DNA of 34,997 nt from Candidatus Iainarchaeum sp. (GTDB taxonomy: Archaea > Iainarchaeota > Iainarchaeia > Iainarchaeales > JAAZKV01), in NCBI GenBank assembly GCA_028701835.1, contig JAQVQA010000005.1, positions 1 to 34,997 of the forward strand. Direction: 5' to 3'. The notes beneath the pieces were generated by a model, which worked only from the letters and a program-made list of their open reading frames with translations, did not search any database and had not been told where the DNA came from. The translations under genes and the position numbers were made by a program. Each line of letters opens with the position of its first letter. The first letter of the stretch is position 1. Shown in pieces: positions 8,195 through 34,997 of the stretch.

Positions 8195-9622
8195 TTAAAT
8201 TTCTTCATATTCTTCTTTTGGAGTATTGAATAGTAAATTCATTATTATTAATACTATGATTAAGAATACTATTATCCCGCCTATTAGGGTTGAATCAATA
8301 TCTTGGAATAAATTGTTTTTGATTAAGTTTAAATGATTTTTTTCTTCACAATTTACACAATTTTTTGTCGTTTCTTTAATGCTTGAGTTTATTGTTACCT
8401 CTTTTTCAAGTCCGTCCAAATTCAACAAATTTATTTCGTGAATTGTTGATTGTGAGTTGCAATCTAACTGGTTTTTATCTAACTCAATTTTTTTTTGAGT
8501 TAGTTCTCCAAAAGCACTTATATTTAATTTCATTTCGTGCGAGCATTTTATTGCAATTAATAAACTATTCTTGTCTTTTTGATTTACTATTACTTCTATT
8601 ATTGAATTAAAATCGGGTGAACTTTCTTGTACCCCTATTCGCATTGCTTTGCAATTAATGTTGTTGTCACTAATGCATTTCCAATTAGTGATTGAACCAA
8701 TTGTTTCTCCCAAAACAGGGTTTGTTATTGAGGGAGTACTATTCTTGCACAAGTCTCCATTTCCAGGAAACTCTTCTCCTAAAAAATAGTCTTTGTTTGC
8801 ACTTCCGCAAGAAACTTCTCCTTCTTTTAGTACACACTCTCCCCTAAAAATAACATAACCTTCATTACAATTCCACTCGCATTTTCTAGTAGTATTTGTT
8901 TTTGTTAGTACGCTTGCAGTATTATAATCTAGTCCCTTTTCATCGTCTTCAAACATAGTTGCATTCTCAAATACTCCTATACAAGAATATGTTTTTAAAA
9001 CGCATTTCCTAACACCATTAACTAAATCTATTTGGTAGTTTTCTTTACAATAATACTCGCATTTTCTATTAGTATTTGTTTCAACTAATTCTTTTAGTGT
9101 GTTAGAATCAAGTTTCATATCATCATTATAGTAAATTAAAGCGTTTTCAAAATCGTTTCCAGCACAAGCAAAGGGGAGACATTCATTAGCATTAACTCCA
9201 CCCAAATAGTGAAATTCGTTACAATACCATTGGCATTTTCTTATCTCTGAGCAACTATTCTTAGAGTTAACTAGAATATTTGTTATTCCTTTTTGAGGTA
9301 AGTTAGTATTATCATCAGGACAAATAGTTGCATTATTTGGAGTAGGTCCTTCACAAGTTAGTTCTGATAAATTTAAGCATTTTCCTTCATTTAAGTAATA
9401 ACCATTTTTGCAGTACCACTCGCATTTTTTTTGATTATTACAATCCAAATAAGAGTCAATTAAGTTAATTGAATAATTTTGATCAAGATTAGTGTTACTA
9501 TCTTTGCACATTAACGAGTTTGAATCAATCACCCCAATGCATTCAAATGAATAAACTGAAGTTAAAAAGAAAATAAGTAATATTATTAGATAAAATAATT
9601 TATTCACACTAACTCCCCACAT
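8195..9622 (-). CDS. Type I membrane-anchored, secreted cysteine-repeat protein. It has four copies of a roughly 60-aa Cys module, then a CGSA-type domain, then a C-terminal TM helix.
   Basis: 475-aa ORF with ATG start. N-terminal hydrophobic signal is LFYLIILLIFFLTSVYS. Repeated pattern is C-x(35-40)-(R)KCE[WY]xCxxGY-x(7-12)-C. C-terminal TM segment is LIGGIIVFLIIVLIIMNLLF. It is a paralogue of the next gene. Confidence 0.8.
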   Translation of the reverse strand: MWGVSVNKLFYLIILLIFFLTSVYSFECIGVIDSNSLMCKDSNTNLDQNYSINLIDSYLDCNNQKKCEWYCKNGYYLNEGKCLNLSELTCEGPTPNNATICPDDNTNLPQKGITNILVNSKNSCSEIRKCQWYCNEFHYLGGVNANECLPFACAGNDFENALIYYNDDMKLDSNTLKELVETNTNRKCEYYCKENYQIDLVNGVRKCVLKTYSCIGVFENATMFEDDEKGLDYNTASVLTKTNTTRKCEWNCNEGYVIFRGECVLKEGEVSCGSANKDYFLGEEFPGNGDLCKNSTPSITNPVLGETIGSITNWKCISDNNINCKAMRIGVQESSPDFNSIIEVIVNQKDKNSLLIAIKCSHEMKLNISAFGELTQKKIELDKNQLDCNSQSTIHEINLLNLDGLEKEVTINSSIKETTKNCVNCEEKNHLNLIKNNLFQDIDSTLIGGIIVFLIIVLIIMNLLFNTPKEEYEEI

Positions 9623-9642
9623 AATTTAAAATAATTCAAATG

Positions 9643-9705
9643 AATTTAAATTAATAATAAAATCACCTAATTTAAATTAATAACAAAACCATTTTAATTT
9701 AAATT
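9643..9705. repeat. Three copies of the palindromic decamer AATTTAAATT, spaced 26-27 nt apart. Two copies extend to the 15-mer AATTTAAATTAATAA.
   Basis: Copies at 9643, 9669 and 9696. They lie 21-85 nt upstream of the start of the minus-strand gene 8195..9622. Further short direct repeats (ATTAATTTAATCA at 9741 and 9781) occur in the same intergenic region. Confidence 0.7.
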
Positions 9706-9873
9706 TAAAACTACTACCCTAACGCAAAATTTGTAACTATATTAATTTAATCATAAAATAGCTACATTAATTAATTATACATTAATTTAATCAAAAAATT
9801 ATTTTAACTAAAATAATATTTATTCAATTGAATAAAATCTTTTTTTAAAAAATCAATGAATTTAATTTTTTTT

Positions 9874-12867
9874 TCAATTATTTTTTGTGGAAGAGTTAAT
9901 CTTGTCTTTGTTAAGGAAAAAATATGCACCTACCCCTATTATTAGTATTAGAATCATCGCACCTATTATAATGAATCCTATTGAATTATCTTCTTTAGTT
10001 GTTTCGCTTGGAGTGTAATCCATGTAATAAATTAATTCACAGTCTTCACAATCATCTTTATCAACTAAAGCTACTTTAATATCAAGAGTTCTTTCTTCGC
10101 TAGGAATTGATTCTAATTCTAGCATAAATTCTTCTTCACTTGTAGGGCAATCAATTGTTTTTTGAGTTATTTTGTACTCTTCTTTTGATAAATAATCTTT
10201 TATAGTAACTTCAACAGTTGTTGTTTTTTCGCATTTTAGAGTGAGTTTTATTTTTCCTTCTTCACTCATTTTTGCAGTTGCTTTGATTATTGAGTTTGTT
10301 GTTTTTTCTTCTTGAGGCACTTCAGTATATTTACTTGACACTCTTGTAGCAAAACATTCTTTGTTAACATCATCAATGCAAATCCAAGAAGTTATTGAAC
10401 CTATTTCTTGACTAAGTGAAGGGTTTGTAATTGAAGGCGTTCCTTTTTCGCATAGAGTGAAAGTTGATGGGAAGCTTTCGTTTGGATTGTATCCTCTCTC
10501 AGCGTTACCACAAACAGCAGTACTCAAGCTCACAGGAACACACGTGTTTCCATCTTTTTTATAATTTAATGCGCAATGGTATTCGCATTTTCTTTGAGTG
10601 TTTGTCTCGACTAATAAAAAATTTAGGTCTTGGGTTAAACCAAAGTCATCCCCAATATAAATTACTCCGTTTGATGACATCACCCCTATACAATTGTAAT
10701 TCATTGGTAAGCACATTGCTTCTCCTTGAACAACACTCAAATAATACCCTTGTCTACAATGATACTCGCATTTTCTTTGAGTGTTTGATGTTGAGAGTAT
10801 ACTATTAGTGTCTTGGGTTAAACCTGAATCGTCATCATCATAAAGTATTGCATTTGAATCTATTCTACCAACGCACTTAAAAGTTTCTTTGCTTTTTTCA
10901 ACACACTTATACCCTTTTCCATTTGCATCAACTAATCGGTACCCTTCTTTGCAACCCCATTCACACTTCATAGGAGTATCTTCAAATACAATCGTGTTAA
11001 TTAGGTTATCAAATAAAGTTAGATTTTGATCATCTCCTAAAATTATTTGGGTAGAATTAGTATCCATTGGACCCATGCAAGTATAAACTCCTTTAGGAAC
11101 GCACTTGTTTATATCTTCTCCAACTCCCCTCTCAAATCCACTTTGACAAACCCAAACACATTTTTGACCAGTATTGCATCTTACCCCAAGTGTATTTGTA
11201 GTGTTTTGATCCAAATCCTTATTCCAATCAATGCAAGGAATTGCATTTGTATCTATTTCTCCTTCACAAAAATAATTATTCAGTATGCATTTGTTTTCAT
11301 CTAACCCTGTTCCTTTGTGGTATCCACTTTTACAATGATACTCGCACTTTGCAATAGTGTTAGAGTCAACTAAAACACTATTCATATCACTCATTAAATC
11401 AACATTATCATCTTCATAAATTACTGCATTTGAATCAATTAATTCACTTTGAGTGCATTTAAATGGATTAGGAATGCACTTAGTTTTTTCATCATTTAAA
11501 ATAAAATTCTTTGCACAATGATACTGGCACTTTGTACTAGTATTAGAATCAACTAGAGTTATTTCTAAATCTTGGGTTAAATTTGCATCATCCCCTTTGT
11601 AAATAATTGAATTAGAATCTTTTTCTCCAATACACTTGTATTGGTAAGGTAAGCAAGTTCTCTTTCCTGAAACTATTCCAAAATAATAACCTTCATTGCA
11701 AGTATATTCACATTTCCTTGTACTAGTACAATCTTCTAATAGTAAATCAGATACTACTCCAATCACCCCTTCGTCATCATTATCACAAATTGTTGCAGTA
11801 AAATAATTTAGGTCTGTTTTTATACAAGAATAAGGGTGGCAATTACCGTCTTTGTAAAAATAATTTTCATTACAACTGTAAGTACAATCACTCATAGATT
11901 CTTGGTAAAAATAAGTATCATTAATTAAAGTATACCAATTCAAACCACTCCATTTTTCAGTGTATTTTTCATCAGGGTGATTGGGTGTTGAATTTAGAGG
12001 AGTATTTCCTTGACAATCATTAATTCTTCTTGTTTCATAACTACAATTATTAGTACAATTAGTAGACCCTTTTATACAATCAAAAATTTCATCTACTTGC
12101 TCGTCACAATCATTGTCCAAACCATCACATTTTTCAAAAGCATTAGGATAAACACTTGACTTTGAATCGTCACAATCAGTATTGTCACTAATATAATCTC
12201 CACTATAAGAACTACAAGAACTAATTACATCTCCTGCCCCAAAACCATCTCCATCAACATCTAAATAAAAATTATAAAATGGAATTCCTTCATCAATTTC
12301 ATTATCACAATCATTATCTAAACCGTCACAAATTTCAGGTGTAGGGACACAAACTTCTTCTGCTTCTTCTACAGGATCAACAGGCTCACCCAGGTTTAAA
12401 GAATTAACTAAATTCAAGAATCTATTAAAAGTTAAAGTGCCTCTAAAAAGAGATGATGTTATTTTAGTATTATTTTGTGTATTAATAAAAGCTATTACAG
12501 GAAATCCAGGAACACTATTATTCAAATATTTTCTTTTAACATATTGATATACTCCATCCCCGCTTGTGTTCTCATAATTGGCATATACCAAAGGAACTTT
12601 GTTTTCTCTTGACCAATTATAAAAGGTTTGAGTATTAAAAACTCTGTTCATTGCACTATCACATAACCCGCACCCTGAACTCCCTACAAAAACCACTAAG
12701 TAAGTCCCGTTTTGATTTGCAAGGTTTTTTGCTGCACTTAAATCTTTACTCCATTTACCAAAAACAGCTCCATTTAACTGAAAAGGAGGTTCGTAACTAA
12801 ATACAAACCCAATTAGAAAGAGGATTAAAATAAATAATGTAAACAATCTTTTGTCAAAATTTTGCAT
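9874..12867 (-). CDS. Large type I membrane-anchored cysteine-repeat surface protein. Order of parts: signal peptide, thioredoxin-like CxxC domain, CDGxDNDCD metal-binding-like motifs, about eight Cys modules, CGNA-type domain, TM anchor.
   Basis: 997-aa ORF with ATG start. Signal is LFTLFILILFLIGFVFS. The thioredoxin-like segment YLVVFVGSSGCGLCDS...GFPVIAFI carries CGLC. Two CDGLDNDCD(N/E)xxDE motifs are present. I read seven clear modules plus one degenerate module ending in KCEYxCxxGY. C-terminal TM segment is IGFIIIGAMILILIIGVGAYFF. Confidence 0.85.
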   Translation of the reverse strand: MQNFDKRLFTLFILILFLIGFVFSYEPPFQLNGAVFGKWSKDLSAAKNLANQNGTYLVVFVGSSGCGLCDSAMNRVFNTQTFYNWSRENKVPLVYANYENTSGDGVYQYVKRKYLNNSVPGFPVIAFINTQNNTKITSSLFRGTLTFNRFLNLVNSLNLGEPVDPVEEAEEVCVPTPEICDGLDNDCDNEIDEGIPFYNFYLDVDGDGFGAGDVISSCSSYSGDYISDNTDCDDSKSSVYPNAFEKCDGLDNDCDEQVDEIFDCIKGSTNCTNNCSYETRRINDCQGNTPLNSTPNHPDEKYTEKWSGLNWYTLINDTYFYQESMSDCTYSCNENYFYKDGNCHPYSCIKTDLNYFTATICDNDDEGVIGVVSDLLLEDCTSTRKCEYTCNEGYYFGIVSGKRTCLPYQYKCIGEKDSNSIIYKGDDANLTQDLEITLVDSNTSTKCQYHCAKNFILNDEKTKCIPNPFKCTQSELIDSNAVIYEDDNVDLMSDMNSVLVDSNTIAKCEYHCKSGYHKGTGLDENKCILNNYFCEGEIDTNAIPCIDWNKDLDQNTTNTLGVRCNTGQKCVWVCQSGFERGVGEDINKCVPKGVYTCMGPMDTNSTQIILGDDQNLTLFDNLINTIVFEDTPMKCEWGCKEGYRLVDANGKGYKCVEKSKETFKCVGRIDSNAILYDDDDSGLTQDTNSILSTSNTQRKCEYHCRQGYYLSVVQGEAMCLPMNYNCIGVMSSNGVIYIGDDFGLTQDLNFLLVETNTQRKCEYHCALNYKKDGNTCVPVSLSTAVCGNAERGYNPNESFPSTFTLCEKGTPSITNPSLSQEIGSITSWICIDDVNKECFATRVSSKYTEVPQEEKTTNSIIKATAKMSEEGKIKLTLKCEKTTTVEVTIKDYLSKEEYKITQKTIDCPTSEEEFMLELESIPSEERTLDIKVALVDKDDCEDCELIYYMDYTPSETTKEDNSIGFIIIGAMILILIIGVGAYFFLNKDKINSSTKNN

Positions 12868-13520: not shown

Positions 13521-14750
13521 ATGAAATTAAAGAAACCAGAGCTCTTAGTAGGTGCAGGTGATTTTTCTAGTGTTATTGCTGCTAGTAACGCTGGGGCGGA
13601 TGCAATTTACTTTGGAGTTAAAGGGTATAATATGAGGGATCTTGGAACTAACTTTAAACCAAGTGAGTTAAGAAAATTAATGAGTTTTCTTCATGACAAA
13701 AAAATGAAGGGTTACTTGGCTCTTAATACAATAATTTTCGAGGAAGAGTTGAGTAGAGTTGAAAAGATTTTGGCGACTGCTAAAAAAGCAGGTGTTGATG
13801 CAGTAATTTTGTCTGACTTAGGAGTTTTGTCCCTTGCAAGAAAACACAAGTTGAATATTTTTTTGAGTACTCAAGCAAGTGTAACTAATTCAATTGCTTT
13901 AAAGGAATATAAATCTCTTGGAGTAAAGAGAGTTATTTTTGCTAGGGAAATGAATTTAACTCAAATTAAGGAAGTTACTAAAAAAGCACATAAATTAGGT
14001 ATTGAAGCAGAGTGTTTTGTTCATGGAGCTATGTGTATTAGTGTTAGTGGTAGGTGTTTTTTGAGTCATGAACTTTTTGGAAGGAGTGCTAATAGGGGTG
14101 AGTGTCTTCAACCTTGTAGGAGAGCTTTTTTCCTTGATGGAGCTAAACCAGATTATGAGAAGAAAGAAGTTTATTTGCAAGGAGATACTATTCTTTCTGC
14201 AAAGGACTTAAAATCAATTGATTTTTTGGATAAAATAATTAATTCAGGAATTGATTCAATTAAAATTGAGGGTAGGACTAAACCAGCTGATTATGTTTTT
14301 GCAACAACTAAGTGTTATAGGGAAGGAATTGACTCTGTTTTTGACAAGACTTTTTCAAAAGAAAAGATTAGTGAGTGGAATAATGAATTATCTAAAGTAT
14401 ATAATAGGGGTTTTTCGAATGGATTCTTTTTTGATAAACCTAGTGGGAAAGATCTTGCTAAGGGCCAAGGTAGTTTTCAGACCCAAAAAAGGGTTCAAGT
14501 TGGAATTGTAACAAAATATTATGTTAAAGTAGGGGTTGCTGAAATTAAGTTATTTGATTCACTTAGCGTTGGGGACACAATTACTATTGAGGGAGTAACT
14601 ACTTTCATTCAACAAAAAGTTGATTCAATGGAAATAAATAATAAAGTTGTTTTTAGTGCAAGTAAGGATAATGCAATAGGGGTTAAAGTTAGTGAGAGAG
14701 TAAGACCTAATGATAAAGTGTTTAAGTTTGTTAAGAGGATTAATAATTAA
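13521..14750 (+). CDS. U32-family protein (peptidase U32 / O2-independent hydroxylase family) with an intact 4Fe-4S motif
   Basis: 409-aa ORF. N-terminal KPELLVGAGDFSSVIAASNAGADAIYFG is typical of U32. C-ISVSGR-C-FLSHELFGRSANRGE-C-LQP-C equals CX6CX15CX3C. A C-terminal beta-barrel-like U32_C region is present. Confidence 0.9.
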   Translation: MKLKKPELLVGAGDFSSVIAASNAGADAIYFGVKGYNMRDLGTNFKPSELRKLMSFLHDKKMKGYLALNTIIFEEELSRVEKILATAKKAGVDAVILSDLGVLSLARKHKLNIFLSTQASVTNSIALKEYKSLGVKRVIFAREMNLTQIKEVTKKAHKLGIEAECFVHGAMCISVSGRCFLSHELFGRSANRGECLQPCRRAFFLDGAKPDYEKKEVYLQGDTILSAKDLKSIDFLDKIINSGIDSIKIEGRTKPADYVFATTKCYREGIDSVFDKTFSKEKISEWNNELSKVYNRGFSNGFFFDKPSGKDLAKGQGSFQTQKRVQVGIVTKYYVKVGVAEIKLFDSLSVGDTITIEGVTTFIQQKVDSMEINNKVVFSASKDNAIGVKVSERVRPNDKVFKFVKRINN

Positions 14751-14800: not shown

Positions 14801-15712
14801 ATGGACTTTGGTTTACCTAATTTTTTTGGATTCGCTTATTCAGAAGATCAGTTACTTGTTCTCAGATTATTAAAAGAATCAAAAAAAAGAGGGGCTAGTA
14901 AAGTTATTCTAATGAGTGCTCCTTCTTTTGTAGTTGATTTTGATTATAAGGATTTTTGTCCTTTAATGAAGGGGCTTGGTTTTGATAAGGTAACTGAATT
15001 AACTTTTGGAGCAAAGATAGTGAATTCTTGTTATAGATCATATATTAAAGAGAATAAAGAAAAGCAAGAAAAATTTATTGCTAGTGTTTGTCCTTCTACA
15101 GTAGAGCTAGTAAAAAACAAGTACCCTTATTTGAAAAGATTTCTTCTTCCTTTTGACTCCCCAATGGTTGCAATGAGTAAAGTTTTGAAAAAGAATTATC
15201 CTAAACACAAAATAGTTTTTGTTTCTCCTTGTAGTGCAAAAAAAGTTGAAGCAAAAAAATCTTTTTATAATGGAAAGCAATTAATTGATGCAGTAATAAC
15301 TTTTTCTGAATTAAAGCAAATCCTTGCTAAAGAGAAGCCAAAAAAATTGAGTGTTAGTCACAAATTTGATTCTTTTTACAATGATTACACAAAAATTTAT
15401 CCTCTTTCAGGGGGGCTGGGAGCAACTCTTAACAAAAAAGGTATTTTGAGTGAAAGTGAAATGGTTTCTTGTGATGGTTTTAATCAAATTCAAAGAGTTT
15501 TTGAAAAAAAATTGGATAAAGTTTTTTTTGATGTATTGTTTTGTAATGGGGGTTGCATTGGAGGGAATGGAATTAGTTCTAAATTACCAATTGTTTTGAG
15601 AAAACAAAAAGTTTTATCTTACAGAAATCTTTCAAAAAAAGAGAATATGGATGGCAACCAAGGTTTGAGTAAGTACTTTAGAGGAATTAATTTTTCAAAA
15701 AAATTTGATTGA
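14801..15712 (+). CDS. [FeFe]-hydrogenase large-subunit C-terminal (H-domain)-like protein, minimal form with no ferredoxin-like N-terminal domains
   Basis: 303-aa ORF. LGFDKVTELTFGA aligns to the Fe_hyd_lg_C core. Counterparts of the three H-cluster motifs are present: SVCPS (vs TSCCP), SPCSAKKVEA (vs MPCxxKxxE) and FCNGGCIGGNG (vs MACxGGCxxGGG). Confidence 0.8.
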   Translation: MDFGLPNFFGFAYSEDQLLVLRLLKESKKRGASKVILMSAPSFVVDFDYKDFCPLMKGLGFDKVTELTFGAKIVNSCYRSYIKENKEKQEKFIASVCPSTVELVKNKYPYLKRFLLPFDSPMVAMSKVLKKNYPKHKIVFVSPCSAKKVEAKKSFYNGKQLIDAVITFSELKQILAKEKPKKLSVSHKFDSFYNDYTKIYPLSGGLGATLNKKGILSESEMVSCDGFNQIQRVFEKKLDKVFFDVLFCNGGCIGGNGISSKLPIVLRKQKVLSYRNLSKKENMDGNQGLSKYFRGINFSKKFD

Positions 15713-15783: not shown

Positions 15784-16914
15784 ATGATTTATCATTTAAT
15801 TACTACTCCGGATTGTAACTTGTGTTGTGAGTATTGTTGTGGAAAATCTTTTCAGGAACCAGAAAGCAAAATTAAGTTCGAATCTGTTCCTAGCAAACCT
15901 CAATTTACTCAAGCACAATTAAATTCTTTTTTGAAAAAGGATAAGGATAAGCCTGTTTCAATTATTTTTTATGGCGGGGAACCCTTGCTAAACATTGATT
16001 TTATTAAGCAAACAATGGATGCTCAAGAAAAGTACAAAACCGTTGATAATTTCTTGATTCAAACTAATGCTACTCTTCTTGACAAGTTACCAAAAAAATA
16101 TGTTAATAGGTTTCATACTATTCTAGTTTCGATTGACGGAGGAAGAATTACTACTAATAAAAATAGAGGGGAAGGAACTTGGGAGAAAGTTATTAATAAT
16201 GTTAAATTGGTTAAGTCTAATGGATTCAAAAAAGAGATTATTGCTCGAATGACTATTGAAGAACCAACTCATTTTTTTGAAGACATAATGGATTTAATTA
16301 ATCCAAAGGACGAAAATGGTTTTTCTTTTAATTCAATTCATTGGCAACTCGATGCAAATATGTGGCATGATTATAAGAAAAGAAATTTTTCTAATTGGAT
16401 TAGAGAGTATAATTTAGATATTACAAAATTAACTGATTTTTGGGTTAGTGAAATGAAGAAAGGAAGGGTTTTGAGGCTTTACCCTTTTTTAGGTTTAATG
16501 AATTCACTTATTTTTGGAAATAAATTTTATTTACGATGCGGTTCAGGGGTAAGCAATTTTACTATTATTTCTAACGGCAAGATTAGTGCTTGCCCAATAA
16601 TGCAAGGAATTAATGAGAAATACTTAGGAGATATTAATTCAACTAACCCTAAGAACCTTAGTTTTAAACTAACTTGTTCTTCTCCTTGCACAAAGTGTAG
16701 TGAGTTTGAGTTATGCGGGGGCAGATGTCTTTATTCTAACCTTTACCCTGCTTGGCCAAAGAAAGGTGTTAATGAAATTTGTGATTCAATTAAACATTTA
16801 ATTTCTGAAATGAAGAGAATTCAACCAGAAGTAGAGGTTTTGTTGAAAAATAAAGTTATTAAGAAAAAAGATTTTGATTTCTTAAAATATAATTGTTGTG
16901 AAATAATTCCTTAA
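15784..16914 (+). CDS. Radical SAM enzyme with a complete C-terminal SPASM domain. It may belong to the archaeal AF0577-like putative peptide-modifying family; that assignment is from memory and unverified.
   Basis: 376-aa ORF. The CX3CX2C motif is C-NLC-C-EY-C near the N-terminus. The SPASM motif is C-x12-G-x4-C (CGSGVSNFTIISNGKISAC), then C-TK-C-SEFEL-C-GGR-C (CX2CX5CX3C), then a later Cys. Confidence 0.85.
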   Translation: MIYHLITTPDCNLCCEYCCGKSFQEPESKIKFESVPSKPQFTQAQLNSFLKKDKDKPVSIIFYGGEPLLNIDFIKQTMDAQEKYKTVDNFLIQTNATLLDKLPKKYVNRFHTILVSIDGGRITTNKNRGEGTWEKVINNVKLVKSNGFKKEIIARMTIEEPTHFFEDIMDLINPKDENGFSFNSIHWQLDANMWHDYKKRNFSNWIREYNLDITKLTDFWVSEMKKGRVLRLYPFLGLMNSLIFGNKFYLRCGSGVSNFTIISNGKISACPIMQGINEKYLGDINSTNPKNLSFKLTCSSPCTKCSEFELCGGRCLYSNLYPAWPKKGVNEICDSIKHLISEMKRIQPEVEVLLKNKVIKKKDFDFLKYNCCEIIP

Positions 16915-18169: not shown

Positions 18170-19906
18170 TTAATCCAATAATTTAATTAATACTTTTTCA
18201 ATTGAATTTTTCTTTAATTCACTTATTTTCTCTTTAACTATTAAAGCATCTTCTTCACTAAAATTATTTACCTTATTTTTAATTATCTCTTTCACAGCAT
18301 CTATTTCAATTGAAGCATTTGATAATAAATCTAAGGATTCCTTAAATTTTAGAGCATAATTAAAATCATTTATCCCTTCATAATAATTAGAAACTCCTTT
18401 TATTTTCAAGCTTATTTTACTTAACTCAATTTTTAGTTCCTCTAATTTTAAAGCTAATTCCAACAATTTTGTTGAATCACTCAAAATTTCTTTATTTATT
18501 TTATTTGAATCACTAGTTTTATTTTCACCAATACACTCCACTAACACAACACAATTATCAGAGTTTGTTTTAATTAACAATTTCCCTCCCCTTTCTTCAC
18601 AAGCAATGTATTTTGATTGAGGTAATTCGTTTAAGGAAATGCATTTCTCTTCTTTAATATAACCATTTTTGTCTTTATTTGGTTTTATTGTTGAATCAAA
18701 ATTAGAGTCAGAATAATTTAAATCAGTTGAATTATAGTTGTTTATATTACAAACATAATTTAGACAATTGTTAGCATATTCTTTTACTATCACTTCTCCA
18801 CCCAAACTTAAGCACTTTTCTTTAATTAACTTTATTTCTTCAAGAGTTTGTTTCTTGCATTCATTTTCACAGTACCTTGCATTTTCTCCATTGTCACAAG
18901 AAATATTTTTACACCCCTCTTCATCAATTATTATTTTGCAATTTGGTCTACAAGGGTTAATGAATTCTATATTTTCTACACTCGACGCTAAACTTATACA
19001 AGTATTAAAATCTAAATTAACTTTTACTCCGTACGCATTTGATCTTGTTTCACTTGAATTATTGTCATTAGTGTAGCACTTTTCTTCTGTGAATTGAGCG
19101 CATATTTGCCTTGCCTTTTCTTTCCAATAAGCTAGAGGCATGCACTTTTCTAATCTTTCTTTATAAACTTCTTTGTTTGAACAAACCCAATTCGCCCCTA
19201 AATAAAAACCTGAATTAGAATTTTGATTAGAATATTCTGCGCTTGCAGTATTATACTCATTAACTATTATAACACAAACCGGTTTTTTGCACCCTTTTTC
19301 ATCAATCTTTTCTATTAGTACTTGATTCAAATCACAAATCGGTTTAACGTATTTTTCGCACTCTGAATTATTATTTAAATCAAAATTAGAATCCAAATTA
19401 TTATTTCCGCCATAATTTTCATCATAATTTTCATCATAATTTTCATTATAATTTTCATCATAATTTTCATCATAATTATTGTCATTACTATCAAGGTAGT
19501 TGTTATTAGAGTCACTATCTTTACACTCGCCAACATAAGCAATTTCTACTTTTTCGCAGTTAGCTATACACTTATTACCATAAGTTTTTCCGTTCACTCC
19601 ACAAACAGGAGCATATTCCATTGTACAAATGCAATCCGGTGCTTTAACTATGTTTGAAACAACATCTTCGTTTGAATCACATTTTTCTTCCCATATTCTT
19701 AAGCATTTTTGTTTCTCTTCACACCAAGTATAACCTGCTGAAGGAATGCAACCATGTTCATCCCTATCATTTCCAACTATTTGGTTAAAAGAATTAGAAT
19801 CTTTAGAATCATTAGTGTCAGAGGTTTCATTTAAGTCCGCAAAAGAAGGTACTGCTAGTAGTAGTGCTAGAGAAATAACTAATAATATGGTTAACTTTTT
19901 ATCCAC
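18170..19906 (-). CDS. Secreted cysteine-rich protein with a Kazal-type domain, a (DENY)n low-complexity tract and a C-terminal coiled-coil-like region
   Basis: 578-aa ORF with GTG start. Signal peptide is ILLVISLALLLAVPSFA. C-TMEYAPV-C-GVNGKT-Y-GNK-C-IAN-C...C fits the Kazal spacing C-x7-C-x6-Y-x3-C-x3-C. Confidence 0.75.
   Translation of the reverse strand: MDKKLTILLVISLALLLAVPSFADLNETSDTNDSKDSNSFNQIVGNDRDEHGCIPSAGYTWCEEKQKCLRIWEEKCDSNEDVVSNIVKAPDCICTMEYAPVCGVNGKTYGNKCIANCEKVEIAYVGECKDSDSNNNYLDSNDNNYDENYDENYNENYDENYDENYGGNNNLDSNFDLNNNSECEKYVKPICDLNQVLIEKIDEKGCKKPVCVIIVNEYNTASAEYSNQNSNSGFYLGANWVCSNKEVYKERLEKCMPLAYWKEKARQICAQFTEEKCYTNDNNSSETRSNAYGVKVNLDFNTCISLASSVENIEFINPCRPNCKIIIDEEGCKNISCDNGENARYCENECKKQTLEEIKLIKEKCLSLGGEVIVKEYANNCLNYVCNINNYNSTDLNYSDSNFDSTIKPNKDKNGYIKEEKCISLNELPQSKYIACEERGGKLLIKTNSDNCVVLVECIGENKTSDSNKINKEILSDSTKLLELALKLEELKIELSKISLKIKGVSNYYEGINDFNYALKFKESLDLLSNASIEIDAVKEIIKNKVNNFSEEDALIVKEKISELKKNSIEKVLIKLLD
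19411..19477. repeat. 12-bp in-frame tandem repeat (CATAATTTTCAT, 5 full units plus a partial one, with a single substitution) encoding NYDENYDENYNENYDENYDENY
   Basis: Read directly from the sequence. It lies inside CDS 18170..19906. Confidence 0.9.
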
Positions 19907-24588: not shown

Positions 24589-25899
24589 CTACTTTGGAAG
24601 AGAGTGTCCCCAAGTCTTTAATGCTTCTTTTAACTCGGGGCAATTCTTTGCTTTTTCTTCTACGCTTATCTTATCCAAATAAGCTTCTATACTTGCTCTC
24701 ATTGCGACTGCTCCAGCATGACTCCCTTTTGGGTGTCCGTGTACTCCCCCACCAAGTTGAATCATTATGTTTGTTCCAAGTAAATTAAATATTTTATCAA
24801 CTATACCTGGGTGTAGTCCTCCACTTGAAACAGGGAATACTGGTTTTATTTTACCCCAATCTTGTTCAAAGCAATGCTCTAACACATTTTGTTTTGTCTT
24901 GCTTTGAGTTAATTCGTTTTGGCATTGAAGAACTTCTTCCTTTGGACTAACTAACTTTCCGTAAGCAGTGCCTATATGTAATTGGTCTACTCCAATTAGT
25001 CTTGACAATTTTGACACGCAATTCATCGAGAATCCATGGTTATTACTCCTAGTGAATGAAGCATGCATCGCTCTATGAGCATGAATCGCAAGCCCCAAAT
25101 CTTTACACTCTTCTCTAAGAGAATTTGTTGCAGTCCAACCCGAAGTAATAACATCAATCATTACATACTCTCCACCCATTTTTTTTACATAATTTGCTCT
25201 CTCAATCATTTCTTGAACAGTAGGAGCACTCACATTAATTAAATAAGATTTTTTTTCTCCAGTTACTTTCTGGGCTTTTTCCCTCATTTTTAACGTATTC
25301 TCTACTCTTTTTTTAAAGGGATTAAATTTTTGGTTAGTTAAATTCTCATCATCTTTTAATAAATCAAGACCACCTGTCCAAATATCATACCCTACTTTAG
25401 CATGTTCTTCTGTAGTCATACCTACTTTGGGTTTTGCAACACTAAGCATTAAAGGCCTTTTTGTAACATTAAATATTTTTCTAACCCCATTCACTCCAAA
25501 TGCAGGCCCCTTGTATTGTTTAATAATGTCTTTAGTGAATTGAATATCTTGTAACTTGAGTGAATCAACTGCTTTCATCCCAAATACATTCCCTGCAATT
25601 GAAGCTAGTATTTGGGAAGGATTTTTTTGTTCAAAGTGGTCTTCAGGGTAAGCTATTTTTATCCAAAAATATTCCCCATGATTCTCTATACTATAAACTT
25701 TGCCAGCAACTTTTTTTACATGAGGGTACTTTGCCCAAATATCAATATCACTCCAAGTACCAACACTCGATTCACTAGCAATCGCCCCAAATGCTCTCTC
25801 TGGAGTCTCCCAACTAGGAACTTTTACTTTAAAAGAAGCGAGTACATCCTTATTATTTGGTTTATAACCAAGGTCTACAAAATCCTCATAACTAGCCAT
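24589..25899 (-). CDS. rbcL: Ribulose-1,5-bisphosphate carboxylase/oxygenase large subunit, form III (archaeal type)
   Basis: About 436 aa from the ATG at 25899; an in-frame TTG lies 6 nt upstream. Active-site blocks are KPKVGMT, GGLDLLKDDENL (carbamylated Lys), HAHRAMHA, SGGLHPG and GGGVHGHP. No small-subunit gene is present. Confidence 0.93.
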   Translation of the reverse strand: MASYEDFVDLGYKPNNKDVLASFKVKVPSWETPERAFGAIASESSVGTWSDIDIWAKYPHVKKVAGKVYSIENHGEYFWIKIAYPEDHFEQKNPSQILASIAGNVFGMKAVDSLKLQDIQFTKDIIKQYKGPAFGVNGVRKIFNVTKRPLMLSVAKPKVGMTTEEHAKVGYDIWTGGLDLLKDDENLTNQKFNPFKKRVENTLKMREKAQKVTGEKKSYLINVSAPTVQEMIERANYVKKMGGEYVMIDVITSGWTATNSLREECKDLGLAIHAHRAMHASFTRSNNHGFSMNCVSKLSRLIGVDQLHIGTAYGKLVSPKEEVLQCQNELTQSKTKQNVLEHCFEQDWGKIKPVFPVSSGGLHPGIVDKIFNLLGTNIMIQLGGGVHGHPKGSHAGAVAMRASIEAYLDKISVEEKAKNCPELKEALKTWGHSLPK

Positions 25900-25992
25900 T
25901 CTCAAAAACCCTCAAAAAATTAAATAACTAAATGTTAATTAAAGAAGAATTTTGAGGTTAATAATAGTTCCCTCTGGATTAAAAAATTGTTT

Positions 25993-28900
25993 TTATTCAC
26001 TAATTTCGCTAGGGTACTTCATGCAATAATCCCAAGAATTAAGGAAATTATTCATTGTGTGTTGCATTAATTTACTATTAGTAGGATTCATATTACCATA
26101 TTGGTGGTTAATGTTGTTGTTTTGCCAAGCATTAAGTGAAGGCCAAAGATTAACTTCCATAACTTCGTTTGAAACCCCTATTAATTCTCCATTAATATAA
26201 TAACCAATTCCGCCTTCTTGAGTAAAATCTTCCCAATAAATATTATCCCCAAATAAAGAAATATCTCTAACTTGTTTTGAATCATCTATTATTCTTCCAT
26301 TATACACTAAACCATCCGCTGACCCAAATGCATAATTATTCTTAAAAATAACAAAATCACGGCCTTGGATTCTTTCTCCTACTTTCTTTCCATTAAAATA
26401 TATTTCATTTGAATTTTTTCCACGTCCAATCCAATTATCCTCAAACAATTTTACTTCATTAAGCTCTTCATTAAATACTCTTACCCCATCAACAAAAACC
26501 CCTTCGTCTGTTGTAACAATGTGATGATTATCAAAAAGGATAGTTTCATTAAAAGAGACTTTAATATCATTAAATAAATTCAATAATTTTCCATTAAAAA
26601 TCAAATTATTCCCTAAAAAAAAGCTCGTAAAATTAGCTACTGCAAAACCTAAATTTTCAAAAACTAAGTTATTTTCACCAAAGAAAGTATAGTCTAAAGA
26701 AGGATTATAATAATCTACTCTTTCACCATTTTTATATAAATAACTGTTCTTTTCCTCAACCCAAATCGTTCCAATTGAAGAAAAGAAAGAATCTTGCCCT
26801 TTTCCGCTTTGAACTAGTTTACCGTTTTTGAAAACTTTGTTAAAACCATTAACATCAAAATAACTAACATCCGGGAGTTGGGTTATAAGGTTATTCCCAT
26901 CAATCCAGTCAATTTTCATAGCCCCCTCTTTTTTTGAATCAACTATTTTTTCACCATTCCAAACTATTGAACCATCTTTTGTTTTGTAAGCATAATTATT
27001 ATGAGATATCGTAAAATCGGTTTTAATCATACAATCAGCATCAGAAAAAACATTCTCATCATAACCAAAAGAATAATCTGCCTTGCAATAACCAATATGA
27101 TTCCCCCAAAGTTGCGGATGTTCACCCAAACCAAATTTATTACCATCATAAAAAACCATTTTTCTATTTTTACACTCCCCTCTAAATTCTTCACATTCAT
27201 TCCCCTTCAAATCATATTTATCATCTTTTACATATGCATAATGATTATCAAAAATTGTTAACTCTGTAATATTTCCCTCATCCACTTTTACTCCATCAAA
27301 ATACAATTCCCTCCACGTAACACTATCAGCTCGTTTTATGTAAGCATAATGCCCGTTACAATCAAAAACCTTATAATAATTTGAATTTTTTAACAAATCT
27401 AACTCTATTTTTTCTGTCAAAATCATTTCCCCTGCTTTTAAAGGATCTATTTTCAGGGTTTTTTCAACTAATCCTGCAGAAAAATTAATTTCTTTTGATT
27501 CATTAGGCCTTAACCCAATCATCAACCCATCATTTTTATCTAAAACCATAAAGGCTCCAATAATAGAATCTATTTGAACATGAATTGTGTTTTTATTATA
27601 GTCAGAGTTTATTTCTATTGGAACAAAAACAAAAGCGTAATCCAAACTAATGTTTATTGATTCACCAACACTAGGCACATCAATTAAAGTCTCTTCAAAA
27701 AAAGCTTTTTTTTGTGCCAAAAAGTAAAAAACTGCTTTTCCATTTGGTTTGCCAAACAATTCAAATGAATTATCTTGGAAAGGGTAGAAATACTTTTTTG
27801 AAATCGAAGCATAGTCTTTTCCTTTCACTACTGCTGTCAAAAAATAATTTGAATCAATTGAACTAGATTCACTTTCTTGGAATAAAATAAATTCTTTTAA
27901 ATATATTAATTCATTCATTGAAATATTCTCTTCCACATTTTCATTAACAAGGGTTGTAGAATAATCTCTATTTATTGTTTTAAAAAGAATTTCAAAATCT
28001 CCATAATACTCTTCTATTGTTGTAACTTCTTTACCATAAATATATTTGATTGAGTAAGTTAATTCTTTACCATATTTTATTTTTTGAGTAAATACCCTAT
28101 TAAGATCATCATATTCAAATTCAAATTCACCTTCATCATTTTTGATCCCTTTAAGCAACCCCTTGTCATTATATTCAAATTGTATTGAAGTAGTTAATTC
28201 TATTAAAGGGTTAGCAAATGAATTACTAATTTTCTTTAACTCATTTCCTTCATAATAAAATTCATACTTCATATAATAATTCTGATCAAAAACAAAGAAT
28301 ATGTTGTTTAGTTTGTTCGAATCATAATCAAAAAACACTCCTTTTTTTTCTGATTGAATTATATAACCCAATCTATTGTCAGAGTATAAAAGATTTGATG
28401 CTTCTTGACTTAGAACTGAGAATGGATAAGCATTTCTATTATTGATATCCTCATCAAATTGAGAATAACTCAATAGTCCCTCAGCTATACTTAATTTCAA
28501 TTCACCAGTTCTTGGATTAACCCAAAAATCATTAAAATTTTCTTTTTCACTAATTTCGTTTTGTGAAAAATAATAACACTTCTTTGATTCATTCAAATCT
28601 TTTTCAAAGTGAAAATTACGAGCCCAATCAGAAAAATCATTATAAACAGTTTGACCTACTTCAGAGATAACTTGGTTTAAAGGAATACCTCTAATAGGAG
28701 CATCATTTACAATTGGATTATAAATTAAGTTTTCATAAACATTAACCGGAGCAACTACTTCAGAAAAATTTTCTTGAGTTTGGCGAATAATATCTTCTGC
28801 AGAACCAGAAATTGAAGTAGAGTAAGTTGCAAGAACATTTCCCCTTAAATCACTAGGATTTGCTTGACCTAAAGGATTATCTATGCCTAAAAGCAACGCC

Positions 28901-33012: not shown

Positions 33013-34997
33013 AATGAATTATAAATTAAATTTAGTTATTTTCATTTTCTTTTTTTTAAGTACAATTGTCCTTGCTTTTAGTGGAGGGAGTGGGACTATT
33101 AGTGATCCTTTTATTATTACTAATTGCATTGAACTACAAGAAGTCCATAATATAAACAATCTTGAAAAAGCATATATTTTAGGCAATGATATTAACTGTT
33201 ATAATGAAACACGACTTGGAGGCACATTATACAATAATGGAGAAGGTTTTAACCCAATAGGGCATTTTGGTTATTATAATTTTAACAATTATGTATCCCC
33301 CTTTACAGGTACTTTTAATGGAAAAAATTTTGTAATATCTAATTTAACAATTAATAGACCTAATTTTGATTCAGTAGCATTATTTGCATCAACTCAAAAT
33401 GCTTCAATACAAAACGTGGGTTTAGAAAATGCTTTAATCACCGGATGGAATATTGTTTCTTCATTAGTAGCAAATTCTGATTCTTCAACAATTATTAATA
33501 CTTACAATAAAAATGGATTAATAAACGGCGCAGGAATTGTTGGAGGTTTAATAGGAAGACAACAAGGAAATTCTGTGTTAATTAATTCATATAACACTGG
33601 AAATGTATTAGGTAGATATTATAACGAATTTGCTGAACCAAACAATATAGGGGGCTTAATCGGATTTAGTGAGTCTTTAATTAATCCAACAAAAAATTGT
33701 TTTTCAACGGGAAGAATTGTTGGAACTAATGCTATAGACGGGTTAATAGGTTCTACTTCTTTATTACCAATTAATAGTTATTGGTTCGACGTTTTAGATG
33801 ATAATGCTACCTCTTGCAGTGGTTGCATTAAATCAAATTCAATTAATAATTTTTATTCAAAAAATTATGGAGTGTATATTAACACACCTATTTGGGATGG
33901 TAATTGGTTTTGGTCAGAAAATAGTTTTCCAGTTCTAAAAAAAATGATGGGTGAAGGGACTATTAGTGATCCTTTTATTATTACTAATTGCATTCAACTC
34001 CAAAATATAAATAATAATTTGAATGCCCATTATATTCTGGGAAGTGATATTGATTGTAGTGATACAATTAATTGGAATAATGGCTCTGGTTTTATTCCAA
34101 TTGGGGGAGCATATTCAAATTTTAAAGGTAGTTTGGACGGAAATTATAAAGTAATAAAGAATTTGTACATTAATATCCCTGTTTCAAGAAATCTTGCAGG
34201 AACAAATGACTTTGTAGGTTTGTTTTGTATTGTTGATGGGGCAAAATTAAGAAACATTGGTTTGAAAGATGCAAACATAACTGGGGCTGTTGATGTTGGT
34301 GGTTTTATAGGGAGAGTTAACATATACAGTCCAACTGAATTAACTAATTTGTATTTTGATGGAGAATTAACTGGAACTGATGAGGGCGCTATGTATGGAG
34401 TATTATCAACAGTAGGAGGAATTATTGGAACAACCTGGGACAAAGTAACTTTAAAAAACTCTTTTTCAACAGGAAAAATAAATTCAAGTGGATATGGAGG
34501 AGGATTGATTGGGAGTATTCAAGGAAGTAATATAATTAATTCTTATAGTTTGATGAGTATTACTGCCCCTTATGCGGGGGGTTTGGGTGGTTTTGCTTCG
34601 GGGGGTTCTATCATTAATTCTTTTTCAGCTACTAATTTGAGCGGAAACACAACTTCTCCAATAGTAGCAAAGGTTAATAATAACTATAATTCATCTAATT
34701 TGTATTGTTTAAATAGTTCTGCCCCCCCTAATTGTACTTTTGTTTCTGACCCGAAATTGATTTACCCAAATACTCACCAAGTTTATAACTCTAGTCCTTC
34801 TTGGGATAATAATTGGGTTTGGACTGAAAGCTTTTTTCCTCAATTAAATACATTTCCTTATTGTAGGGGCCCGATTGATGGCAATGCAGTAATTTATCAA
34901 GGGGATTGGACTGGATTAAAACCAACTGATAATTTAATCAATGTTCTCTCAAATTCAAATACTTCAAGAACTTGTGAATGGAAATGCAAAGAGGGTT
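33013..34997 (+). CDS. Secreted GLUG-motif beta-helix adhesin-like protein. It has two tandem GLUG modules and then enters the shared Cys module. It is 3'-truncated by the window end.
   Basis: I translated this open frame from the ATG at 33013 to the window edge; it is absent from the ORF track because it has no stop. Signal is LVIFIFFFLSTIVLAFS. GTISDPFIITNCI(E/Q)LQ occurs twice. Recurrent GGLIG/GGFIG/GGIIG (GLUG-like) motifs are present. The last residues, CRGPIDGNAVIYQGD...NTSRTCEWKCKEG, match the module of genes 8195..9622 and 9874..12867. Confidence 0.85.
33092..33130 (+). repeat. 39-nt perfect direct repeat, copy 1 (GGGACTATTAGTGATCCTTTTATTATTACTAATTGCATT)
   Basis: Identical to 33956..33994. 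It marks the start of GLUG module 1. Confidence 0.9.
33956..33994 (+). repeat. 39-nt perfect direct repeat, copy 2
   Basis: Identical to 33092..33130, 864 nt downstream and in the same reading frame. It marks the start of GLUG module 2. Confidence 0.9.

Follow-up and report, generated by a model that had tools for sequence, protein, structure and literature searches.

The 34,997-nucleotide stretch of Candidatus Iainarchaeum sp. DNA analyzed here (contig JAQVQA010000005.1; hereafter the window) carries two adjacent minus-strand genes, which we call A475 (8195-9622, 475 amino acids (aa)) and B997 (9874-12867, 997 aa), and both encode tandem arrays of a cysteine-rich module of 54-63 residues. 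On profile evidence, the window module is a four-Cys lineage variant of a large cross-domain six-Cys family with at least 857 sequence clusters. Taken together, the results are best explained, with a probability of about 0.55, by type I surface proteins in which a rod of disulfide-containing modules stands on a conserved base and displays heads, probably for contact with cells or surfaces.

Module arrays, heads, and base

The sequence-only reading that preceded this work had described two adjacent minus-strand surface-protein genes. The open reading frames (ORFs) are exactly as it gave them, and hydropathy analysis finds two hydrophobic segments in each protein, one N-terminal and signal-like and the other a C-terminal transmembrane (TM) segment. 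The TM anchor lies at 8228..8287 (aa ~446-465) in A475, with a Kyte-Doolittle maximum of 3.12 over 19-mers, and at 9913..9981 (aa ~963-985) in B997; a short charged tail follows it in both proteins and is acidic in A475. All cysteines, 28 in A475 and 56 in B997, fall between the two hydrophobic segments, a layout that fits type I membrane anchoring and an ectodomain rich in disulfides. The true A475 start may be a GTG six codons 3' of the annotated ATG (9605-9622, minus strand), where a 98%-identical homologue (P0002) begins (MNKLFY...).

Copies of the motif C-x-[WYF]-x-C-x-x-x-[YFH] follow one another every ~60 residues, four of them in A475 and eight in B997, and a module hidden Markov model (HMM) delimits the same number of copies as had been read by eye. 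In A475 these form an array at 8828..9547 (aa 26-265; copies at aa 26-84, 88-150, 151-209, and 212-265). In B997, seven clear modules (10534..11832, aa 346-778; copies at aa 346-407, 410-466, 469-529, 532-591, 595-657, 663-721, and 724-778) are preceded by a divergent one (11833..12021, aa 283-345). The window HMM scores 49-89 bits per module overall, with 65-78 bits in A475 and 64-89 bits for the seven clear copies of B997. Alignment of the twelve units reveals four invariant cysteines with the spacing C-x(33-38)-C-x3-C-x(10-15)-C. As a non-circular test, an independent HMM was made only from nine bacterial-type copies found outside the window (alignment A4); it detects all four A475 copies (E 4e-9 to 3e-13) and all seven clear B997 copies (E 5e-9 to 3e-16).

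At the DNA level, the modules repeat with a period of 180-183 nt and an identity of 60-78%, and because identity between copies is this low, the modules are old duplications. Recent duplication or recombination among copies was considered and is excluded by the same identity values together with the 1:1 orthology of copies between species.

The bacterial-only HMM matches just the C-terminal half of the divergent B997 copy (E ~0.003), and only this half ('C.Y.C..NY...G.C') is recognizably homologous. The earlier label of "degenerate" is not borne out, since the copy is kept in orthologues at 65% identity, and similar copies are present in the family proteins P0011 and P0029. It looks like a distinct Trp-containing subtype and not a product of decay. 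A Trp-rich subtype, C.G..P.N...Y..KW.G..W....Y......C.[YW].C...Y...G.C, recurs beside the canonical module in P0011, P0029, P0028, and P0021, and may represent a sister subfamily distributed more widely among bacteria.

A second nuance concerns the extra cysteine pair, which had been taken to mark a sub-variant. Such a pair is indeed present in four window copies (the first two modules of A475, whose last two are four-Cys, and clear modules 1 and 4 of B997) and missing from the other 8 of 12; as six-Cys modules are the majority form of the wider family, the label of sub-variant does not hold. Among family copies, the extra cysteines (column 14 and column ~33) occur both together in 359, neither in 148, and singly in none. 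This strict gain or loss together indicates that the two must form a disulfide with each other, and the four-Cys window form therefore reflects concerted loss of the Cys14-Cys33 bond; in the four-Cys window copies, Tyr/Phe and Asn stand in place of Cys14 and Cys33. Correlated loss among the core cysteines is confined to two aberrant copies and yields no pairing information. By analogy with the C-terminal hairpin of epidermal growth factor (EGF) domains, the core disulfides are most likely C1-C2 and C3-C4.

Structure prediction for a single module, B997 663-721, with AlphaFold2 (AF2) and a 34-copy alignment gave a confident all-beta model with seven short strands (predicted local distance difference test (pLDDT) 96.4, predicted TM-score (pTM) 0.78, all five models >=95.6). 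Foldseek comparison of this model, a method that is weak on 59-residue domains, returned no significant whole-domain match in the PDB (best E 3.7, TM-score <=0.30) or in BFVD.

Between the arrays and the membrane, the sequence-only reading had pointed out a conserved CG(S/N)A...W.C...C domain in both proteins. This ~65-residue "CGxA" domain (A475, 8627..8821, aa 268-332; B997, 10330..10524, aa 782-846) is also found in five homologues, and the alignment (A3) contains 26 invariant columns. Its pattern is CG.A...F....LC..G..S...P.L......W.C.....C.A.R, with invariant C, G, A, Y, F, C, P, W, C, and C. Pfam contains no match to it. Relatives of the form CG..G...P..LC..G..S..SGSGPW.W.C.G..GG...C.A, with 8-12 residues before LC, occur as tandem units in P0013 and P0020, and on this alignment the domain belongs to a second uncurated four-Cys family. 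In an AF2 model of the C-terminal 180 aa, made with a 7-sequence alignment, the CGxA domain was modeled below pLDDT 50. The adjoining ~100 residues of A475 (8318..8620, aa ~335-435), which contain a conserved Cys pair and a CxxC, were predicted as a beta-sandwich (pLDDT ~90) with generic FN3/Ig-like Foldseek matches (HAP2 D3, FlaG, FN3; E ~6e-3); the equivalent region of B997 (10003..10320, aa ~850-955) aligns with this modeled segment.

B997 differs from A475 at the other end, where it carries two further elements that had gone unnoticed in the sequence-only reading. Its N-terminal head (12418..12795, aa 25-150) is thioredoxin-like, with Thioredoxin_7 (E 9e-4), Thioredoxin_2 (E 0.047), and DsbH (E 0.0019) matching at the same place, and its CxxC (CGLC, aa 66-69) is invariant in 3 orthologues. 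The head of the orthologue P0011 also matches the thioredoxin clan (E 8.6e-6 for Thioredoxin_2, and 2.7e-5); all thioredoxin matches of B997 and P0011 lie just under gathering scores. PDB searches by sequence and by profile were made with the B997 head, and the profile search gave nothing significant. Next to the head is a region (12022..12375, aa ~165-282) with two MopE-type CDGxDNDCD motifs, putatively metal-binding, where PF11617 scores 47.7 bits over two stretches (gathering score 27) and where a DNA repeat (D6) has a 201-nt spacing. The combination of thioredoxin-like head and MopE region is conserved in P0011 and in the B997 orthologue of locus L002. A surface-tethered thiol-disulfide oxidoreductase at the distal tip of a disulfide-rich stalk would be unusual in an anaerobic archaeon; the thioredoxin-like assignment is sub-threshold.

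A third gene is cut by the window end. This plus-strand ORF has an ATG at 33014 and stays open to 34996, and it encodes the 5' part of a third paralogue: a signal-like segment, two GLUG beta-helix-like regions (PF07581 Glug, 36.3 bits; gathering score 20.5), and a first module. The earlier claim that the truncated GLUG protein runs into the same module is confirmed by the module HMM, which recognizes the fragment YCRGPIDGNAVIY...SNTSRTCEWKCKEG (34859..34996, plus strand) at 43.1 bits (E 2.9e-14); the last 46 residues of the ORF are the start of a module, and the terminal stretch reads YCRGPIDGNAVIYQGDWTGL...SNTSRTCEWKCKEG. The module is thus shared by three window genes, in keeping with the earlier count of at least three. 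P0015, a protein of 1167 aa, aligns over its first 656 residues with the whole length of this ORF (34% identity, E 1e-84); beyond the aligned part it has 6 modules, followed by a CGxA domain, a beta-sandwich, and a TM segment. Because P0015 continues in this way, the window holds three paralogues with a common stalk and base and different heads.

The arrangement of A475 and B997 is conserved. A475 has homologues at 98% identity (P0002) and at 72% (P0003), the latter being its closest named homologue, on a 983-kb contig of Ca. Iainarchaeum sp.; B997 has a 999-aa orthologue in L002 at 68%. Synteny of the gene pair is kept in three assemblies, with the order DUF2203, 999-aa gene, 504-aa gene, rpoH, rpoB, rpoA in Ca. 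Iainarchaeum sp. Module number and order, whose comparison between strains had been suggested, correspond 1:1 between the two Iainarchaeum species, with no indels. The surface genes are 68-72% identical to their Ca. Iainarchaeum orthologues, and the housekeeping neighbors are 82-96% identical. Along B997, identity is lowest in the distal head (44%) and increases toward the membrane, reaching 84-89% in the proximal modules and the base (89% in the CGxA domain).

Extent of the module family

Word-indexed protein searches with short module profiles (1 and 0 matches) lacked the sensitivity needed for queries of 55-60 aa. The archaeal module profile was therefore run with HMMER, exhaustively, against the representatives of 1.84 billion clusters (50% identity), in line with the HMM search that the sequence-only reading had proposed. 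Matches comprised 857 clusters at E<=1e-3, of which 347 remained at E<=1e-10 and 82 at E<=1e-30. In the 161 proteins that were retrieved, we counted 651 module copies, with full-length copies comprising 329 of the six-Cys and 144 of the four-Cys form, and the most copies per protein (17) occur in P0010 from Candidatus Omnitrophota. The family consensus is [YF]sCtGxxPxNAxLCxGDDxGLxxxTxxxLVxxCTxxxKCEYxCxsGYxxxGxxCV. Its defining motifs, C-x-G-x-x-[PD]-x-N-A, G-D-D-x-G-L, K-C-E-[YW]-x-C-x-x-G-[YF], and the terminal Cys, are present in the window modules, and detection by HMM is reciprocal, in that the bacterial copies are found by the archaeal profile and, conversely, none of the 11 clear window copies escapes the bacterial-only profile. 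Window and family modules thus agree in length, core Cys positions, and conserved motifs; they differ in that 8 of the 12 window copies are without Cys14-Cys33 and in that the archaeal proteins add the base of CGxA domain, beta-sandwich, and TM segment.

To place the family taxonomically, GTDB was scanned, one genome per species, with the pattern KCE[YH]xC[NDA][ASP]GY, seeded on the nine bacterial-type copies. Most of the 43 loci obtained come from Patescibacteria (Candidate Phyla Radiation, CPR), Omnitrophota, Bdellovibrionales, and DPANN archaea. The Patescibacteria/CPR contribute 17 loci (Saccharibacteria, Moranbacteria, Gracilibacteria, Peribacteria, Falkow-, Lipton- and Nomurabacteria, and others), the Omnitrophota five, and the Bdellovibrionales four. 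Six loci are archaeal, three of them from DPANN (Aenigmatarchaeota, Woesearchaeota, and Nanoarchaeota) and one labeled Methanosarcinales. The rest are from unclassified bacteria (six), Planctomycetales (two), genomes labeled Pseudomonadales (two), and Virgibacillus (one, a weak match). The archaeal-derived HMM confirmed modules at 41 of the 43 loci, the two not recovered being L029 (Peribacteria) and the weak Virgibacillus match (L047). In a scan of viral contigs, the module was not found.

An N-terminal hydrophobic segment is present in 120 of 145 complete family members, and the partner domains are of extracellular or adhesin type: TSP1, LRR, CARDB, PKD, Big_13, beta-helix, Flg_new, Fib_succ_major, cohesin, DUF4215, MopE, N_methyl pilin, and type IV secretion system (T4SS) pilin. 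P0008, for example, combines a class-III/Flp-like leader with TSP1 repeats and eight modules, and its gene adjoins a prepilin peptidase gene. On the P0008 contig (L001, 4460-8154 and 8151-9020), the subsequent genes are an HxsD-like gene, two radical-SAM genes (a His-Xaa-Ser-type peptide maturation system), and the prepilin peptidase (A24) gene. All retrievable source names of family proteins are "hypothetical protein," and literature searches returned no description of the module, nor of Sushi-like repeats in CPR, DPANN, or Omnitrophota.

Possible roles of the array

We propose that the ectodomain is formed by a chain of ~56-60-residue all-beta modules with two or three disulfides each, which would make the array a semi-rigid, protease-resistant rod. 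The rod would stand on the conserved base (CGxA domain, Ig/FN3-like beta-sandwich, and TM helix) and would hold distal heads off the cell, namely the thioredoxin-like segment with MopE in B997 and the GLUG beta-helices in the third gene. A475 has modules only and no head; a rod may also simply project its own surface. The likely task of the array is contact with other cells or with surfaces, through adhesion or recognition, much as in the CCP (complement control protein), EGF, and FN3 arrays of eukaryotic and bacterial adhesins. We infer surface exposure, rod function, and adhesion alike from the sequence, and a contact or recognition role would fit the family's bias toward ultra-small episymbionts and predators, its fusions to pilins, and the fact that the surface genes evolve faster than their neighbors.

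Several observations weigh against this proposal. The taxonomic enrichment comes from one peptide pattern seeded on bacterial copies and is biased by that choice, and labels of metagenome-assembled genomes can err. A475 does not display the distal-to-proximal conservation gradient of B997, and N-glycosylation sequons are not enriched (8 observed vs. 7.3 expected, and 16 vs. 12.9). The Iainarchaeia (Diapherotrites) have been argued to be metabolically fairly complete, so an episymbiotic, host-attached lifestyle of this Iainarchaeum is an assumption. Finally, many disulfides on the surface of an anaerobe would need an oxidizing folding route, unless the thioredoxin-like head serves as one.

The arrays could instead be purely structural envelope parts (a spacer, a cell-wall or S-layer scaffold, or a protective coat) that recognize no partner. 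The strict conservation of module number and order between the two Iainarchaeum species is what would be expected of such parts, as is the composition of A475, with no obvious binding head, and a C-terminal TM anchor is also known from some archaeal envelope proteins. However, the surface genes diverge faster than their neighbors, with the distal end of B997 the most variable; domains of adhesin, lectin, or pilin type accompany the module in family members; the sequon counts are unlike those of typical archaeal S-layer glycoproteins; and the 1516-aa ORF at 25993-30543 is a better envelope-protein candidate. On this balance, a purely structural function is possible, though we think it unlikely.

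In the opposite direction, the contact role could be generalized. The module may be a cell-contact domain of new structure, passed between lineages by horizontal exchange and characteristic of prokaryotes from both domains that are ultra-small and host-dependent or predatory (CPR/Patescibacteria, DPANN, Omnitrophota, and Bdellovibrionota), in effect their shared hardware for recognizing or holding host or prey, with the Iainarchaeum form a disulfide-reduced archaeal adaptation. We put this forward as speculation that is rather unlikely to hold in full.

The head of B997 raises a different possibility, in which the protein handles redox chemistry or metal outside the cell (disulfide formation or copper handling) and the array is merely a tether. 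Three thioredoxin-type models coincide on the head and its CxxC is invariant, the MopE match exceeds its gathering score, and head and MopE are kept together in P0011 and the L002 orthologue; on the other hand, the thioredoxin matches are all below Pfam gathering scores, the head is the least conserved part of B997 (44%), and A475 and the GLUG paralogue, which have no such head, would be left unexplained. We give this explanation little credence relative to the proposed rod-and-head surface proteins.

Relation to curated domains, and genomic setting

The sequence-only reading had matched the module to no named domain, and this stands: Pfam-A yields only partial Sushi (PF00084) matches and NCBIfam nothing. 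The most direct challenge to a separate family is therefore that the module is a divergent Sushi/CCP repeat and that the proteins are ordinary Sushi-domain proteins covered by PF00084, the sole curated model with recurrent matches. There is genuine likeness. Both are tandem, extracellular, all-beta, disulfide-stabilized modules of ~60 residues with four Cys, a C-x-x-P-x-N-[AG]-like start, and a local Y-x-C-x-x-G-Y-x-(L)-x-G-x(4-6)-C hairpin; PF00084 reaches whole-sequence scores of 25.2 bits on B997 and 42.3 bits on P0010; 10 of 86 family members match at E<=1e-4; and the module profile run against PDB sequences returns CCP proteins only (CR1 at 1.5e-9, summed over repeats).

However, these matches never extend beyond positions ~17-44 of the 56 in the profile. 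This half or so corresponds to the Y-x-C-x-x-G-Y-x-L-x-G...C hairpin, and the PDB matches align the same 18-21 residues. Single modules score at most 18.7 bits, below the PF00084 gathering score of 20.7, so that whole proteins pass by summed, individually sub-significant repeats only; in the window proteins, no stretch is individually significant except one in B997. Sushi cysteines are spaced ~C-x(25-30)-C-x(12-16)-C-x(10-15)-C and paired 1-3/2-4, unlike the C-x(33-38)-C-x3-C-x(10-15)-C of the module. The third and fourth module Cys align to Sushi C2 and C3, the module ends at the C3-equivalent Cys with no residue matching Sushi C4, and it has an extra Cys four residues before the Y-x-C Cys. 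Sushi repeats have a near-invariant Trp between their third and fourth Cys; column statistics over 507 modules reveal no conserved Trp after the GY hairpin. The high-confidence predicted fold has no CCP match either, the best being CD55 (TM-score 0.18-0.24 at E>5). Judged by these alignments, the summed partial matches are not true CCP domains, and we consider a Sushi identity improbable. Since B997 exceeds the whole-sequence gathering score of PF00084, annotation pipelines may nevertheless label such proteins "Sushi."

A loose resemblance to EGF had also been remarked upon, and it too is local: the last ~20 module residues (C-x-x-G-Y...C) superpose on EGF-like/cEGF proteins at 0.5-0.8 Å root-mean-square deviation over 18-20 residues with 35-39% identity, and tandem use as extracellular spacers or binding units is common to both. 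The module is nearly twice as long, with C-x3-C in place of C-x-C and four or six Cys in 54-63 residues, compared with the six Cys in 30-40 residues (paired 1-3, 2-4, 5-6) of EGF, and its ~35-residue N-terminal half (CxGxxPxNA...GDDxGL...LV) has no EGF counterpart. EGF Pfam models matched none of the 12 copies except for a stray MSP1 hit in one (E 0.0011). We provisionally describe the modeled module as an EGF/CCP-like C-terminal CxxGY...C hairpin joined to a ~35-residue N-terminal subdomain without a named counterpart, and "new fold" is equally provisional. MopE (PF11617), the Myxococcus Cys-rich repeat (DUF4215/TIGR02232), and TSP1 are comparable in kind, as short disulfide-rich repeats of large secreted or anchored proteins in uncultured bacteria and archaea that co-occur with the module in the same polypeptides, but their pattern and length are unrelated and their models do not match it. 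Lastly, the low GC content (27-32%) and Asn/Lys-rich sequence might suggest a compositional or chance artefact of an AT-rich genome, or ORFs that are not genes, an idea of negligible probability that is refuted by orthologues at 41-98% identity in several assemblies, conserved synteny, hundreds of homologues in the exhaustive HMMER search, invariant cysteines, and an independent HMM that detects every clear copy.

In the remainder of the window, the archaeal RNA polymerase subunits Rpb2 and Rpb1 are each split into two parts, and there are genes for NAC, a RuBisCO large chain, AspRS, and a small protein resembling [FeFe]-hydrogenase. The latter (14801-15712, plus strand; 303 aa) consists of the [FeFe]-hydrogenase large-subunit C-terminal (H-cluster) domain only, and its gene lies between genes for a U32 peptidase and a radical-SAM protein (13521-14750 and 15784-16914, both plus strand), in a cluster whose synteny is kept in Ca. 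Iainarchaeum sp. In size and lineage, the protein fits the minimal or ultraminimal [FeFe] hydrogenases that have been reported to be active in DPANN archaea, including Ca. Iainarchaeum andersonii (PMC11216029). A 578-aa ORF (18170-19906, minus strand) contains a Kazal-type serine protease inhibitor domain (PF00050, 27.6 bits; PF07648, 26.5 bits; both over gathering scores), which gives this genome a further "eukaryote-like" domain of the disulfide-rich extracellular kind. The RuBisCO large-chain homologue (24589-25905, minus strand; PF00016, E 1e-89; PF02788, E 5e-32) is presumably the archaeal form III of the nucleotide-salvage pathway. Just upstream of it lies the 1516-aa ORF considered above (minus strand), which has weak N-terminal CarboxypepD_reg-like matches and is a candidate envelope or S-layer-type giant protein.

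What is new here is an uncurated domain family; the class to which it belongs, small disulfide-rich extracellular repeats, is familiar. If the module is a mere structural spacer, its recognition would be a useful improvement of annotation and no more. The ways in which DPANN archaea, CPR bacteria, and Omnitrophota select and attach to partners are poorly understood, and the label "hypothetical" is given to most of the large proteins on their surfaces. The module offers a concrete handle on this problem, as the basis for a Pfam/NCBIfam model and as a flag for candidate contact proteins across these lineages.

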